The notes beneath the pieces were generated by a model. That model did no database searches. It had not been told where the DNA came from and saw only the letters and a list, made by a program, of their open reading frames with translations. DNA of 64,000 nucleotides from Dehalococcoidia bacterium (GTDB taxonomy: Bacteria; Chloroflexota; Dehalococcoidia; Bin125). Numbering within the stretch: the stretch's first letter is position 1; the number at the start of each line of letters is the position of its first letter. The position numbers and the translations under genes are program-made. Where the stretch lies: the NCBI GenBank assembly GCA_963663235.2, contig CAXXNO010000006.1:279129-343128 (forward strand), in the 5' to 3' direction. This document shows, one piece after another, positions 59,854 to 64,000 of this stretch.

Positions 59854-60081
59854 CCTCACCCTTCCGCTGCGCGAAGGGCGCAAGCGCCCCCTGACCTTTT
59901 CTCCATCGGCAAGCGATGGAGAGGGGGAGGTGATGGCAAGGGAAGGGAGGGATAGAGGCACCTCACCCTTCCGCTGCGCGAAGGGCGCAAGCGCCCCCTG
60001 GCCTTTTCTCCGTCGGCGAGGGATGGGAAACCTCACCCTCCTTCCCCCTCTCCATCGGCAAGCGATGGAGAGGGGGAAGGA
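59854..60081 (+). repeat. REP-like cluster 1: two 43-nt units plus GC-rich hairpins
   Basis: CCTCACCCTTCCGCTGCGCGAAGGGCGCAAGCGCCCCCTGRCC at 59854 and 59961. CTCCATCG-GCAAG-CGATGGAG hairpin twice, the second with a perfect 19-bp stem (60039-60081). Confidence 0.85.
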
Positions 60082-60113
60082 AAGGAAGAAGAGGAAGAAG
60101 AGAAGGAACACGC

Positions 60114-60686
60114 CTAGCCATCGGCGGCGGCCGGGCGTTGCTCGGCGGCGGCCGGGGAGTCTTGCCGTTCGGCGGCCGGGGAGTCTTGCCGTTCGGCGGC
60201 CGGGGAGTCTTGCCGACCGGCGGCTGGGGGATCCGGGGTGGCAGCGTCGAGCTCCTCGTCGGTGAACTCGGCGAAGAGGTCGCGGACGCCGAAGGGCTCC
60301 TCTTGCGGCGGTGGGGGATCGGGCGGCGGCTCAGCGGCCGCGAGGAGGCGGCGGGCCTCGCGCTGGCCGTTGAGGAAGACGCGGAGGAGGCGGGTCAAGT
60401 TCGTCGGGTTCTCATCCGCCTTGTGCGCGTCGAGCTTGGTCCAGAGGAGACGGTCGATCTCGCGGAGGCTGCCCAGGCAGCGGAGGCGCTCGCGGTCGAG
60501 GAAGTCGCGGCGCTGCTCCTGCCAGAGGGTGTGGAGGCGGTCGAGGTCGCGGGCGACGGTGCGCTCGGAGACGCGGAGGAGGGCGGCGATGACGGCGTGG
60601 GTGAGGCCGCGAACGTGGAGGCCATAGACGCGGAGCAAGCGCTCGCGGGTCTCAGAGTTATGTCGCCAAGAGTTCGAGCGGGGCAC
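60114..60686 (-). CDS. Orphan helix-turn-helix protein with C-terminal 8-aa repeats
   Basis: GLTHAVIAALLRVSERTVARDL HTH. GTG start at 60686 with SD GGAAAGG. Confidence 0.65.
   Translation of the reverse strand: MPRSNSWRHNSETRERLLRVYGLHVRGLTHAVIAALLRVSERTVARDLDRLHTLWQEQRRDFLDRERLRCLGSLREIDRLLWTKLDAHKADENPTNLTRLLRVFLNGQREARRLLAAAEPPPDPPPPQEEPFGVRDLFAEFTDEELDAATPDPPAAGRQDSPAAERQDSPAAERQDSPAAAEQRPAAADG
60147..60215. repeat. 24-bp tandem repeat (~3 copies) encoding PAA(G/E)RQDS
   Basis: GGCGGCCGGGGAGTCTTGCCGTTC at 60147, 60171 and 60195 (partial). Confidence 0.9.
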
Positions 60687-61014: not shown

Positions 61015-61761
61015 TTAATCGTCGTCGTCAGGTTCGATCAAGTTCAGGAGGATACCAGCATTGACCAACTCATGGGGCTCTCGCGTGTTGTAGGTGTAGA
61101 CCAGGACGCCATCGCCGGTGGAGCCAGCGAGCTCGCCAGTGCCGCCGGTGATTACGAAGACGAGGGTCACAGTGTTTTCGGTCTCGATGTGAGCACTGTC
61201 GTATGGGGGCCCGACCGGGGTCCCGCCGATGGTGTCACAGTCAGGAACATGGCCGGGACTGCCGGGACCGGGGCGCTCCGTGTTGGAGCCGCCGACGACA
61301 TCCGCAGTAACCGTATCGCCGTCCTCGGTCGTGATCGTCACGGTCGCGGTAAAGGTGTGCGATCCACCCCCAACTACCGTGCAACCGGCGTGTTTGTGGT
61401 CGTCCGGCATCGTAATAGGCGCGTTGTAGACGAGTGCCGAGGGGTGACTGGCCGTGTACGTGCCCTAGTCCCAGGCGGCGCTGCTCTCAACCGTGACGTC
61501 GCCGAGGTCGTCAATCTCTCCGAACAGAAGGGTATCGGCGCCATCATCGAAGGTGCCACTCGAGTCGGGGTCGAACACACCAAATCTCTGGTCGTAATGG
61601 TCGGGGAGGAACGTCGATGGGTCGCCTGTCAGGACGGACCCCTCCGGACCCTCCGGAGAGTCAGCGGCAACGGAGTCGGCGGCCGGCTGGAGACCAAAGA
61701 CCAAAACAAGGATGAGCGCGACCACGGCTGCAATCGCGCTCAGCGCAACGATACGAGGCAT
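61015..61761 (-). pseudogene. Secreted beta-rich protein split by one in-frame TAG (61465-61467)
   Basis: ORFs 61465-61761 (signal peptide) and 61015-61410 share a frame: SSAAWD*GTYTASHPSALVYNAPITMPDD... C-terminal FVITGGTGELAGSTGDG motif. Confidence 0.75.
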
Positions 61762-62097
61762 GATTCTGATCCTTCCGATCTATCGTTCTGGTGGATGCGC
61801 CGGGTACCGATCGGGAACTTCTTCATCAACTTGTCAGGCAACGCGCAGGGCACAGACGCGGACGTTGTCGCCCTGATGGGCCTGCGCGATGGCCCTCGCC
61901 CGAGGCGTGAGCGCCACCACGCTGGTGTGCGGCCGTACCTTGCGCAGCCCCCGACGGCAATGCACTGCAATCAACCGTACCTTCATGCGTCCTCGCCACC
62001 ATTCGGCCGTCCGGCCGTCTAGGTCGCGCCCGTCTCGCTGGAAGTTAGAGGTCGGCGCGAGGATGTCAAGGCTGAGTCGGTCGGCGGGGTGCTGAGA

Positions 62098-62294
62098 CCT
62101 CACCCTTCCGCTGTGCGAAGGGCGCGAGCGGCCTCTGGCCTTTTCTCCAATGGAGAGGGATGGGGGAACCTCACCCTTCCGCTATGCGAAGGGCGCAAGC
62201 GCCCCCTGGCCCTCCTTCGACCCTTCGACAAGCTCAGGGCAGGCAAGCTCAGGACAGGCCTCTCCATCCTTCCCTCCCGGGAAGGATGGAGAGG
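62098..62294 (+). repeat. REP-like cluster 2: two more 43-nt units, nested CCTTCGACAAGCTCAGG repeats and a 16-bp hairpin
   Basis: Units at 62098 and 62169. CCCTTCGACAAGCTCAGGGCAGG (62221-62243) sits inside CCTTCGA|CAAGCTCAGGACAGG. Perfect stem 62259-62274/62279-62294. Confidence 0.85.
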
Positions 62295-62364
62295 AGGCGG
62301 TGATGGGCGGGAGTGAGGTGAAGTGAACGCCGAGGCGATCGCCGACCGCGAGTAGCCCGCGCTC

Positions 62365-62958
62365 TTATCGACGCCGCCTGACCACGACCCGACCACCCAC
62401 AACGCCTAAGAGCACGAGCGCCGCCAGCCCACTCGCCAAACTCAGCGCAAACCACGCACCGCCGCTCTTGTCGGCTGCTAGCCCTCCGCTGCCCGTGTCC
62501 GGCAACGCCTCCGGCCCGGCCGGCGGTGGTCCCGCCGGGGGTCCCCCACCGCCTGGCGCCTGCGCCTCTTGGAAACGTGCGGTCTCCGGGTCCGAGGTGT
62601 CGGGCATCTGGGCCAGGGAGACGATCTTGCCGTCGCGCAACTCGAATGTCGCTATCCGAATGATCCGCTCAATCCCGAAGGCCTCAATCCGTGGCGTTCT
62701 GATCTCCTGAATGGCCGTCACGCTGCTTCCGGAAACCTCGACGCTGACATTCGTAATGTTGAGCCCGTTATCGACCTCCCTTTGAAGATCGTCCCGGATC
62801 TCCGCGAGCCCGACGAACGTTCGGCGTGGGTTATCGATTACGGCGTCCTCAGCGAAGAGGGCCACCGCCGCATCCACGTCGCCACTGTTTATCGCCTCGG
62901 CGAATGCCTCGACAACGGTCGCGGGGTCCGCCTGCGCCGCGACGCGTCCGGGCAACAG
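62365..62958 (-). pseudogene. SnoaL/NTF2-like protein with LPXTG-type anchor, 5' end cut by an IS3 insertion
   Basis: LLPGRVAAQ (end of a signal peptide), DPATVVEAFAEAINSGDVDAAVALFAEDAVI, Pro-rich linker, LPDTG, TM helix, RRRR. Confidence 0.8.
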
Positions 62959-64000
62959 TGACCTGCCCCCGATCGTTGTACCAGTCGTTAAGTGAGTCCG
63001 ATCGCCGGGACGAGCGTCATGGGACGTTCCCGGGGTTGCTGCGTTTCCGGGGCGGGGGGGCGGTAGCCGAGGGCACGGTGGGGGCGGATCTGGTTGTCCT
63101 CCCGCCGCCGGCCCTCGATGAGGATCTGGGCTTCCAGCAGGGTGTCGAAGCGCTCGCGATTGAGGCACGCGTCGCGCAGCTTGCCGTTGAACGATTCCCC
63201 AGAGCCGTTCGCCCAAGGCCTGCCCGGTTCGATGAAGCGGGTCGTGCCCCCGACCCGGTGCAGCCAGTCCCGCACCGCGGTGGCGGTGCACGCCGGGCCG
63301 TTGGCGGACCGCAGAAACGTCGGCGGCCCGCGCTCGACGAACAGCTGGGCCAACCGCGCCAGGCCGTCGTCGCTGCGCCGTCGGCGGGCGACGTCGAGAC
63401 GCAGGCCCTCGCGGGTGGTCCTCATCCACGATGGCGAGGATCCGCACCGGGCGCCCCTCGGCGGTGCGGTCGAAGCCGAAGGCGTCGGACCAGCCGTGGG
63501 ACGGCCGCTCGGCCCGCCGCCGCACCAGCGCGCCGGCCGCGAGCCAGAGGCGGCCCCGTTGGGGGTGCTTCCCGGGGACCCGCCAGCCTTCCTGACGCCA
63601 GAGCCGCTCGACCCGCTTGGGGTTCACCCGCCAGCCCGCCTGGCGCAGCCGGGCCGGGATGCGACGGGAGCCGTAGCGGCCGCAGCGGGTGGCCAGCGCG
63701 ACGCTGCGCGCGATCAGCGCCGGCTCATCCGGGGACGGCCGGGGCACGTAGCGCGGTGTCGCCCGCGCCTGGCCGGTGACCTGGCCGGCCCGCCGCTCCG
63801 ACACCGCGTACGGGTCCGTGCGGTAGGATGTCGCCCGGCGCCGCTGGGCCGGGCGCAGAAGTTTCCCGCTGCGACGTCCCCCAACATCGCGTTGGCCAGC
63901 GCCTGATCGGCCACCACCCGCTTCAGCCGACTGTTCTCGCGCTCCCGTTCTTTCAGCCGCTTGGCCCCTGGTCGACCCGCAGCCCCCCGTACTCCCGCCG
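62959..64000 (-). mobile_element. IS3-family (IS407-group-like) insertion sequence, degenerate, continues past the window edge
   Basis: Terminal IR TGACCTGCCCCC at 62959. orfA end EYGGLRVDQ...ENSRLKRVVAD, slippery site GGGAAAC (~63861-63867), orfB motifs GRYG.RR, VN.KRVER, ESFNGKLRD, RPH..LGY. Frameshifts near 63965 and 63417; both catalytic Asp are Ala. Confidence 0.93.

Follow-up and report, generated by a model that had tools for sequence, protein, structure and literature searches.

How does a single insertion sequence (IS) come to carry one class of transversion and little else, in a genome that otherwise mutates normally? A GC-to-AT bias is nearly universal in bacterial mutation, and mutation is assumed to run much the same in mobile elements as in host DNA. 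The question arises at the end of the window, by which we mean the whole 64,000-nucleotide stretch analyzed here (G000:C6:279129-343128), from the genome of a sponge-associated Chloroflexota (G000) with a G+C content of 68%. A first-pass annotation had described an IS3 element altered almost only by A>C and T>G changes beside a clean-looking, interrupted gene. It proposed either mutagenesis aimed at repeats or transposons, or a copy that decayed under a mutT-like bias and was then moved in trans.

The IS3-family element and its copies

The element lies where it had been placed: it occupies the minus strand, and 62959 is the last position of its right inverted repeat. Because the contig ends at 343128, the first ~202 nt of this copy are missing. 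At full length the element measures 1242-1244 bp and is present in G000 in ~17 copies of 96-100% identity; a self-search of the genome returned 12 full-length copies of 1241-1252 bp and partial copies besides. The following features were assigned:

62365..62958, minus strand: SnoaL_2-domain gene, outside the element (SnoaL_2 52.6 bits, profile positions 1-101 of 102)
62959..64000, minus strand: IS3-family element copy, element positions about 203-1244 (1042 of 1244 bp in the window; 100% self match)
62959..62994, minus strand: right terminal inverted repeat region, from the alignment of copies; the plus strand begins TGACCTGCCCCC
62988..63425, minus strand: C-terminal part of orfB (integrase core), a 145-aa ORF with SANGPAC for SDNGPEF and WANGSGESF for WENGYVESF
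63418, minus strand: one extra base splitting orfB at ILAIVDE/DH, from a comparison of frames with relatives
63426..63854, minus strand: N-terminal part of orfB, comprising the HTH_21 region (41.6 bits) and the start of the catalytic core (HGWSDAFG)
63855..63857, minus strand: former orfA stop codon, TGA>TGC, a change polymorphic among copies
63858..64000, minus strand: 3' portion of orfA, truncated where the contig stops, with a 2-bp insertion near 63965

As in the IS3 family at large, HTH_21, rve and rve_3 domains are encoded and the ends are of the TG...CA type. In G003b and the relatives, orfB comes after orfA (element positions 68-346) in the -1 frame, a layout that may reflect the programmed frameshift of the family. 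TGACCTG...CAGGTCA is conserved in every aligned copy, and every full-length copy carries the termini TGACCTGCCCCCC...GGGGGCAGGTCA. An intact relative (L050:404-1318) scores 58.5 bits for HTH_21, 77.5 for rve, 103.4 for rve_3 and 248.7 for NF033516 (cut-off 160). In a profile search the C-terminal part of orfB in the window reaches 72.1 bits for rve_3 and 18.6 bits for rve, under the cut-off of 32.6. Judged by its predicted domains, an HTH and a DDE core of the rve type, the element encodes an IS3-family transposase. The closest annotated plasmid matches are named only 'IS3 family transposase' and share 62-66% protein identity.

The element departs from the family in Asp>Ala replacements, in the splitting of orfB by an extra base and in the lack of target-site duplications at the 97% copies. 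WSYDF>WSDAF and SDNGP>SANGP replace Asp by Ala in the window copy, C9:135170-136413, C11:27805-29046 and C10:3697-4938, the four 97%-family copies compared. Since these Asp residues are presumably the catalytic ones of the IS3 transposase, the window copy appears to be a dead member of the family and not an active one. The extra base at 63418 is common to the G003 95% copies and both 86% copies, is not found in C10:3697-4938 and is left out in a minority of Logan contigs (X9, X10, X1). The 2-bp insertion near 63965 is shared with C9:135170-136413 and C11:110963-112206, the alignment reading GACCAGGGGCC against GACCA--GGCC, and is left out in part of the Logan contigs. With 92 codons, orfA terminates as GNF* in G003b and reads GNFC in the window and C9 copies; the N-terminal part of orfB is in the frame of ORF 62365..63999. 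Inspection by eye of the 10-12 nt flanking the 12 full-length 97% copies and the G003 copies revealed no target-site duplications, an absence that could result from exchange of flanks by recombination. One 86% copy is flanked on both sides by GACTC.

The insertion cut the 5' end of the SnoaL_2-domain gene (signal-peptide region), whose product ends in an LPDTG motif, a hydrophobic stretch and RRRR. Logan contig X8 record 24 matches 62608-62985 with 0 differences. Homologues of the gene occur in only 3 of 65 genomes of the family, including G000, at 43-52% identity, too distant to polarize changes in the flank.

Spectrum and distribution of the substitutions

As references for polarizing the differences we took five near-ancestral copies (95-96% identity) from G003, a related genome, together with relatives at 84-86% and 73-76%. 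Of 42 derived bases in the window copy, 37 are A:T>C:G (A>C or T>G, hereafter A>C-type), three C>A-type, one C>G and one T>C, the last being the W>R change. The impression that nearly all differences are A>C or T>G, with one clear transition, thus holds against real references. So does most of the accompanying list of changes, namely ITALL>IPARL, NHKR>NPKR, EGL>EGW, HVWSYDFV>HGWSDAFG, REC>REG, RSDNGPEF>RSANGPAC, GSPWENGY>GRPWANGS, RDE>RDA, EYN>EDN, HSALG>HRALG and the loss of the orfA stop; GYRR>GSRR and DEY>DED are older, being present already in the G003 copies.

Across the whole family, A:T>C:G accounts for 69 of 93 derived variants (binomial P = 5e-31 against the 18.7% of other repeats, a baseline that is an unpolarized A/C plus G/T class). 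The share is 21/23 for changes fixed in all copies, 42/49 for shared changes and 6/21 for private ones, and on the stem of the G000 clade it is 19/20. Private changes are transition-rich and differ from the shared and fixed changes taken together (6/21 versus 63/72, Fisher P = 4.5e-7). On the sense strand, 35 of 191 A sites and 34 of 167 T sites are changed, while other changes at A/T amount to one A>T and five A>G-type. Codon positions 1, 2 and 3 are changed at 0.22, 0.22 and 0.14. Strand-coordinated clusters, as expected of single synthesis events, were not found by runs tests in six lineages (P = 0.06-1.0). To judge from these patterns, the changes look replication-error-like and unselected.

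This balance between strands separates the pattern from two known forms of targeted hypermutation. APOBEC enzymes produce G>A on one cDNA strand through a dedicated deaminase. The IS copies resemble APOBEC3 hypermutation in that heavily affected copies lie patchily beside untouched relatives, one class dominates and the changes are consistent with damage during copying of the element; here, however, the changes fall equally on the two strands of a DNA transposon, and no enzyme was identified. In diversity-generating retroelements, a reverse transcriptase copies the target repeat from a template repeat and turns A into any base on one strand. Mutagenesis is centered on adenines there as well, but here A>C (35) nearly equals T>G (34) and the result is only C/G; no TR/VR pair was noticed, though not in a systematic search.

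A closer likeness is found in the mutT/Pol IV signature. With A or T as the +1 neighbor the rate of change is 0.11 and 0.08, compared with 0.22 and 0.26 for C and G. The rate stays flat as the 5' G run lengthens (0.21, 0.30, 0.10, 0.22, 0.33), and T>G hotspots at G runs, as in Cherry (2022, preprint 10.1101/2022.10.28.514265), were therefore rejected; that preprint reports the mutT-type T>G to be independent of such runs. Castell et al. (2025, PMC12318082; E. coli and P. aeruginosa) give AT>CG as 97% of substitutions in mutT strains and describe Pol IV as hot at 5'G/3'C, cold beside A/T and yielding Ala/Gly substitutions. The element shares the nearly pure A:T>C:G spectrum on both strands, the coldness beside A/T, the independence from G runs and the resulting Ala, Gly, Arg and Pro substitutions. 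It differs in that the signature is described there as genome-wide (mutT) or regional (Pol IV) and here affects one IS lineage, and in that GAA and AAC, both hot in Castell et al. (2025), are not hot in the element. By spectrum, the stem, fixed and shared changes match a mutT signature and the private ones (6/21) do not; the context, without 5' G-run drive and cold beside A/T, also matches that of mutT.

The changes spare the ends of the element. All 69 A>C-type changes lie between the first 106 nt and the last 35 nt, terminal stretches that together contain ~51 A/T sites (P about 2e-5). The 80% copy in G005 has other types of substitution at positions 13, 53 and 57 and no A>C-type there, and because of this the spared ends seem to fit a process limited to a region better than selection on the ends.

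Other DNA of the same genome lacks the spectrum. In 474 pairs of non-family repeats in G000, 7650 of 40965 mismatches (18.7%) are in the A/C plus G/T class; the highest share is 0.45, in pairs with few differences, and a 955-bp repeat family with at least 8 copies has 0-6 such differences per pair. Two frameshifted sister copies at 86% have decayed in the usual GC>AT direction, with one A>C among 15 polarized changes. Large near-identical duplicates differ by 48 transitions, 19 A/C plus G/T, six C/G and four A/T. In intact-looking relatives, one or two A>C-type changes occur among 34-58 private ones, and the strain differences listed for single-copy DNA of the window at 56-58 kb consist of G>A or C>T. 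Two dead fragments (C4:694301-694564, 1/12 A>C-type; C12:40633-40939, 1/18) are weak controls because their changes may predate death or reflect divergence under selection. On this comparison of sequences, the mutT-like spectrum is confined to one element lineage, as had been suspected, with no genome-wide mutator at present and without the whole-genome reach of a mutT signature.

The proposed RIP-like targeting of repeats finds no support in these data. Fungal RIP makes C:G>T:A transitions in whatever DNA is duplicated and depends on the sexual cycle. It is like the present case in that a single class of substitution pervades mobile DNA of many copies and destroys the genes there; the difference is that here the class is A:T>C:G, the copies are still spreading and other repeats appear untouched, with a maximum share of 0.45 in the 474 pairs and a clean 955-bp family.

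Recurrence in other genomes and exchange among copies

The pattern is not limited to G000. In G003, 24 of 35 polymorphisms among copies are A>C-type, and copies L028 and L044 differ by 12 such changes out of 13; the G005 80% copy has 46/82 and a partial copy in G000 (C14:1-529) 18/34. In public assemblies, the 145 aa of at least 25 protein clusters include 8-29 codon changes of A>C-type, in graded degrees of damage, compared with 0-4 in ordinary homologues, bar three outlying clusters. The same variants recur in short-read-style contigs from runs of two studies; this check was made on Logan contigs placed on the window, not on raw reads. Their summed depth over the IS is ~40-380x the single-copy depth, a figure that includes related organisms in the sample and is therefore not taken as copy number. 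A survey for the left-end motif in species-representative genomes matched more than 105 stretches. Among the 45 elements of at least 900 bp analyzed from it, no flood of A>C changes was seen outside the family, a comparison of little power given poor alignment and 183 conserved columns.

Copies within G000 are mosaic. More than one event on the tree is needed for 29 of 69 variable columns and 41% of site pairs are incompatible under the four-gamete test, while linkage disequilibrium decays weakly with distance (Spearman -0.08, P = 0.10). All copies, at different loci, have the 21 fixed A>C-type changes. A further 42 are polymorphic among copies and six are private, so the process continued during expansion. 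The notion of a pre-mutated copy moved in trans accordingly survives in part: the 21 identical changes, the Asp>Ala replacements and the spared ends agree with it, but the polymorphic and private changes arose during the expansion itself.

One pair of copies, on C10 and C12, was considered as an allelic test. Over 3540 bp of flanking DNA the identity is 99.6%, none of the 11 substitutions being A/C or G/T, and the IS parts differ at 8 of 461 sites, seven of them in the A/C plus G/T class. The test is undone by the positions of the IS, which are 156 bp apart, and by the variant sites, which on comparison of positions look like known polymorphisms of the family. Independent insertion or gene conversion may explain the difference.

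Origin of the changes

The gene content of G000 was searched for repair and polymerase functions. Six Nudix proteins give weak matches to the MutT model (25.7-34.6 bits against a cut-off of 97.9), a model passed in only 3 of 14 control genomes. A MutY-like protein (adenine glycosylase) of 248 aa covers only the catalytic part of the models, and dinB and an imuB-like gene are candidate polymerase genes. Contig C14, with the sole intact-looking relative, encodes ParB_N, an integrase fragment, sulfatases and transporters; it was rejected as a mutator replicon for want of a polymerase.

A mutT-like mutator state of the whole genome, permanent or episodic in this symbiont family, with the dead IS as the main block of neutral DNA to display it, is unlikely. 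It would suit a genome with no MutT above the cut-off, a MutY-like protein reduced to its catalytic part and 68% G+C, the changes look unselected and the control repeats may be under purifying selection. Yet private changes in the very same dead copies are A>C-type in 6/21 cases versus 63/72, the frameshifted 86% copies decay by GC>AT with one A>C in 15, the near-identical large duplicates are transition-rich (48 versus 19), the strain differences listed at 56-58 kb belong to the G>A or C>T classes, and separate episodes would be required in at least three genera. The normal look of decay in situ would instead be expected if master copies evolved elsewhere (plasmid, phage or a co-resident host with a mutT-like defect) and progressively mutated copies were imported repeatedly. 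The 95-96% copies with shared polymorphic sites in another genus and the Logan depth of ~40-380x over the IS could be read in the same way. We consider such import quite unlikely: the G000 copies group in a single clade that has 19-21 changes of its own, so that most diversification took place inside the G000 lineage, the depth sum counts copies of related organisms, and C14, with its ParB_N and integrase fragment, has no polymerase.

Very unlikely, too, is a dedicated host system that recognizes the transposon or its intermediates and mutagenizes A:T to C:G as a bacterial counterpart of RIP or APOBEC. One mobile-element lineage only is affected, in several genomes, with its transposase ruined and the changes confined to its interior, as such a system would have it; but other repeat families are untouched, including the one with at least 8 copies, the sequence context matches polymerase misincorporation, and we know of no enzyme that converts A:T directly to C:G. 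No candidate gene was found, in a search that was not systematic, and self-searches returned no short sequence matching the IS beyond IS copies and remnants. Biased gene conversion of the MutY type, spreading rare A>C changes as A.G heteroduplex mismatches resolve to C:G, would draw on the encoded glycosylase and agree with the mosaic pattern, the homoplasy among copies and the excess in shared rather than private variants. It is highly improbable, as conversion spreads variants and creates none: 69 new A>C-type sites versus five A>G-type would demand an extreme drive, the clade stem is A>C-type in 19/20 changes, and other repeat families should be affected too. Barely credible, finally, is an artefact, either a lost color channel or mis-polished repeats. 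A>C and T>G are just what loss of the green signal yields in two-color chemistry, nothing in an assembly is harder than its repeats, and the variants were checked on contigs, not raw reads. Nevertheless, the variants lie a few bases apart in haplotypes with clade structure, 21 are fixed in all copies, the ends are spared, other repeats of the same assembly are clean, the same positions vary in contigs from two studies, and graded versions occur in many ENA and NCBI assemblies.

The explanation that we favor, at about an even chance, is misincorporation of oxidized dGTP, of the mutT or Pol IV type, in the DNA synthesis that would accompany the spread or ectopic recombination of these non-autonomous copies. 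A link to transposition or recombination is suggested by which copies are affected. A low-fidelity polymerase would put 8-oxo-dGTP in opposite template A, giving A:T>C:G, the signature of cells that lack MutT or whose Pol IV draws on oxidized dGTP. Such synthesis would be frequent only in these copies, through the copy-out replication step of IS3 elements, through repair synthesis in ectopic recombination or gene conversion among near-identical copies, or through both. Copies with a ruined transposase would keep their ends, multiply through transposase supplied in trans and carry their accumulated changes to new sites. Plain copy-out is strained because there are about 0.35 private A>C-type changes per copy versus 63 on internal branches; it needs many unsampled rounds of transposition or a very high error rate, and it would not by its mechanism spare the ends. 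In mutagenic break repair, as in stress-induced mutagenesis of E. coli or break-induced replication of yeast, mutations arise where repair synthesis occurs. This would account for the restriction to many-copy DNA, the spared ends and the mosaic copies; it differs in that the link here is suggested by the distribution of changes, and we know of no report of it as a signature found in nature throughout the lineage of a single IS family.

We suggest more tentatively, as a possibility short of an even chance, that the mutation process is physically coupled to the life cycle of the transposon, either by error-prone copy-out or recombination synthesis that would place A:T>C:G changes on each copy newly made or converted, or by a dedicated system that marks its intermediates. 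This would be the first bacterial hypermutation restricted to an element, and a functional counterpart of RIP and APOBEC with a transversion chemistry; a literature search, which was not exhaustive, found no published description of such an IS-restricted A:T>C:G pattern.

One IS lineage thus bears a transversion signature otherwise known from mutT mutants, and its neighbors do not. The pattern is testable in existing long-read metagenomes of sponge symbionts, and it warns annotators that such 'transposase' ORFs are dead. If tied to transposition or recombination, it would be a natural read-out of the polymerase and nucleotide pool that serve those steps and a way to inactivate bacterial transposons without deletion. 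It would also explain long open but meaningless frames in GC-rich genomes, since A:T>C:G changes never make stop codons.

The insertion sequence and its surroundings

The window spans G000:C6:279129-343128, and at its right end lies one copy of an insertion sequence (IS), an ordinary IS3 family element that is dead. The copy and the neighbouring features are as follows:

62959-64000, minus strand: insertion sequence copy, 1042 bp present; the contig ends inside the element
62365-62958, minus strand: gene cut by the IS, with a complete SnoaL_2 domain and a signal-peptide region cut by the insertion
61465-61761 and 61015-61410, minus strand: two ORFs divided by a TAG at 61465-61467

A self-search of the host genome (G000; 2.75 Mb, 14 contigs, 68% G+C) found 12 full-length copies of 96-100% identity as well as partial ones, several at contig ends (together the 97% family), and, at lower identity, a pair of 86% copies and a single 75% copy. 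Full-length copies have the ends TGACCTGCCCCCC...GGGGGCAGGTCA and a length of 1241-1252 bp, mostly 1242-1244 bp. Intact relatives contain a 92-codon orfA and orfB in the -1 frame, in which HTH_21, rve and rve_3 were detected using Pfam; NCBIfam model NF033516 ('IS3 family transposase') gave 248.7 bits for an intact relative. Among annotated plasmid genes, the nearest share 62-66% identity. The translated copies of the 97% family show Ala in place of the Asp of WSYDF and SDNGP, and one extra base splits orfB in most copies, C10:3697-4938 being without it, so further spread needs a transposase in trans. The sole intact-looking relative within the assembly, the 75% copy on contig C14 (9712-10955), would be a candidate source. 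This 37-kb contig (loci L176 and L177) encodes a ParB_N protein, an integrase fragment, a peptide ABC transporter and three sulfatases with an FGE-sulfatase, begins with an A>C-mutated partial copy (1-529) and may be an island or plasmid.

The SnoaL_2 gene ends in LPDTG, a hydrophobic stretch and RRRR, a tail resembling a sortase sorting signal. The frame stays free of stop codons through the IS, and a chimeric ORF of 544 codons (62365-63999) therefore extends from the IS into the gene. The two ORFs further left have no Pfam match; 61015-61761 is possibly the broken gene mentioned in the first-pass annotation, and 61243 A>G is its sole change among the differences listed for the sequencing runs. 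Short repeated units (translated ...GNLTLPLREGRKRPL...) recur several times at 59900-60120 and 62089-62320 and also flank the IS copies C6:147809-149050 and C6:130338-131580. Their summed Logan contig depth is 350-476 vs 3-20 nearby, and the units resemble a repeat family of the REP/MITE type.

Runs with parts of the window include sponge metagenomes. Summed contig depth over 62677-64000 is about 40-380x that of adjacent single-copy DNA (runs X8, X9 and X10), far above the roughly 17 copies of the assembly, a sum to which related organisms in the sample contribute. The IS group's 26-nt left end was found in MAGs of Nitrospinota, Planctomycetota, Acidobacteriota, Armatimonadota, Desulfobacterota-type and Chloroflexota, indicating a widespread group; no flood of A>C changes was seen in the copies analysed in this survey (L068-L147).

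Spectrum and position of the substitutions

Changes were polarized against copies from G003, a genome of the same family and a different genus, which are 95-96% identical and lack most of the changes; relatives at 84-86% and 73-76% backed the polarity. Against these real references the near-pure A>C/T>G spectrum, first proposed from comparison with a consensus, holds: 37 of the 42 derived bases in the window copy are A:T>C:G (A>C-type below), with 3 C>A-type, 1 C>G and 1 T>C. Nearly all amino-acid changes named at that stage are present; GYRR>GSRR and DEY>DED are older, being already found in G003. On a maximum-likelihood tree, 19/20 changes on the branch leading to the G000 clade are A>C-type. 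If the 75% copy serves as outgroup, A>C-type accounts for 20/70 fixed changes on the family lineage and 0/56 on the 86% lineage.

Derived variants in the 97% family (4 columns without possible polarity left out)
Distribution; A:T>C:G / all
Fixed in all copies; 21/23
Common to some copies; 42/49
Private to one copy; 6/21
All; 69/93

Overall 69 of 358 A/T sites were changed in this way, evenly on the sense strand (A 35/191, T 34/167) and with no strand-coordinated runs. Codon positions changed at 0.22, 0.22 and 0.14, proportional to their A/T content, showing that coding selection plays no part. That A:T>C:G cannot make stop codons explains the long open frames, including the chimeric one. A>C-type changes are rarer beside an A or T, and 5' G runs have no effect. 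The outer parts of the element, its first 106 and its last 35 nt, contain ~51 A/T sites and none of the 69 changes (P about 2e-5). An independently changed copy in a further genome, G005, is restricted in the same manner: its A>C-type changes lie between positions 83 and 1207, with other types at 13, 53 and 57.

Controls, recurrence and possible exchange among copies

Other repeats in G000 behave normally. Across 474 non-family repeat pairs, unpolarized A/C+G/T mismatches amount to 7650/40965 (18.7%; maximum per pair 0.45), and five large near-identical duplicates (about 32 kb) differ by 48 transitions, 19 A/C+G/T, 6 C/G and 4 A/T. The two 86% copies, which share flanks and an orfB frameshift, show 15 polarized differences (C>T 5, C>A 5, C>G 3, A>G 1, A>C 1), five of them at the left end, where the alignment is poor. 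In intact-looking relatives, A>C-type accounts for 1-2 of 34-58 private changes. Private changes of the 97% family, located in the same dead DNA, are transition-rich and provide an internal control (63/72 A>C-type among fixed and shared vs 6/21 among private; Fisher P = 4.5e-7). Together these data reject a constant genome-wide A:T>C:G bias; a genome-wide mutator bias or a past episode of it is unlikely.

Several blocks of 3-10 kb, often beside IS copies or contig ends, occur twice in G000 at 99.4-99.9% identity. They are probably strain variants or recent segmental duplications within the assembly. Examples are:

C8:221676-231960 and C12:1-10285
C9:139293-148579 and C12:54196-63477
C10:2-3540 and C12:467335-470873

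The same bias recurs elsewhere. The partial copy at the start of C14 has 18/34 A>C-type changes. Among G003's own copies 24/35 polymorphisms are A>C-type, and when its two full copies are compared the share is 12/13. G003 also has a 2061-bp composite duplicate with three differences, all in the 820-bp family part and none in the inserted 76% element; one, a T>G absent from the other G003 copies, lies in a truncated copy unable to move alone. In G005, an 80% and an 86% copy lie head to tail (L054, G005:C1:578432-581116; 101-1332 and 1337-2585, separated by the 4 bp CACG), and the second, 80% copy is heavily mutated (46/82 private changes). Reactive tandem dimers are known in some IS families, and this arrangement is similar. 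A search among 5.8 billion proteins with a 145-aa orfB fragment returned 1708 relatives; among the 120 listed, at least 25 clusters, on ENA or NCBI contigs of at most 3.4 Mb, depart from the ancestral form chiefly through single A>C/T>G changes (for example 29/32, 22/26 and 27/34), a class making up 13% of possible nonsynonymous single changes. Three outlying clusters excepted, ordinary homologues among those listed have 0-4 per about 30 changes. One codon was changed differently between clusters (WENGY to S, D or A).

Logan contigs from runs of two studies differ from the window by 0-3 positions over 5-7 kb of single-copy DNA and carry alternative A or T at 63289, 63292, 63304, 63364 and 63379, all of them C or G in the window copy, a comparison that rests on contigs instead of raw reads and in which one run may be the assembly source. 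Given these alternatives, the recurrence in G003 and G005 and the graded damage in many public protein clusters, a sequencing or assembly artefact is very unlikely.

G000 copies group in a single clade that splits into two subclades. On the tree a single event does not suffice for 29/69 variable columns, the four-gamete test fails in 41% of site pairs vs 59% under independence, and some derived states are polymorphic in both G000 and G003. The pattern suggests gene conversion between copies or recurrent hits, or the two together. Linkage falls weakly with distance (P = 0.10). Inspection of flanks revealed no target-site duplications at the 12 full-length 97% copies or at the G003 copies; GACTC stands on both sides of an 86% copy, and AGAAGA(C) ends three left flanks among the 97% and G003 copies. 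The missing duplications fit flank exchange by recombination. Shared changes now found at new loci show that mutated copies kept moving.

Possible origin of the hypermutation

The family signature matches misincorporation of oxidised dGTP. In a Pseudomonas aeruginosa study, AT>CG makes up 97% of substitutions in mutT strains, and Pol IV with oxidised dGTP favours A/T with 5'G or 3'C, avoids A/T-flanked sites and gives Ala and Gly (PMC12318082). T>G of the mutT type is independent of G runs, according to a preprint (10.1101/2022.10.28.514265), and a Chloroflexota paper contributes general mutT background (PMC13212565). G000 encodes dinB, imuB-like, MutS1 and Fpg genes; a low-power profile search found no clear MutT. 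The sole MutY-like gene (G000:C12:439751-440377; L062:1429-2175, minus strand) encodes 248 aa without the C-terminal part, covering positions 3-212 of 277 in TIGR01084 and 12-218 of 351 in PRK10880. In E. coli MutY the C-terminal domain recognizes 8-oxoG, and this domain seems to be missing in G000. MutY-biased conversion as the main cause is highly improbable.

Because only the propagating, many-copy lineage is changed and its ends are spared, we infer, at about even confidence, that the errors stem from DNA synthesis specific to these copies. Oxidised dGTP would be misincorporated during the copy-out replication of IS3-type transposition, during repair synthesis when copies recombine ectopically, or in both settings, each sub-mechanism being less probable than the general reading. 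Interior restriction, mosaic copies and missing target duplications make us lean towards recombination. The bolder reading, a transposon-coupled or targeted hypermutation process, is a tentative possibility, and a dedicated targeting system is improbable. That master copies evolve on another replicon or in another host is somewhat less improbable, and still doubtful. A full-text literature search found no description of element-restricted A:T>C:G hypermutation. The oxidised-dGTP (mutT) signature itself is known; here it is confined to one mobile-element lineage.
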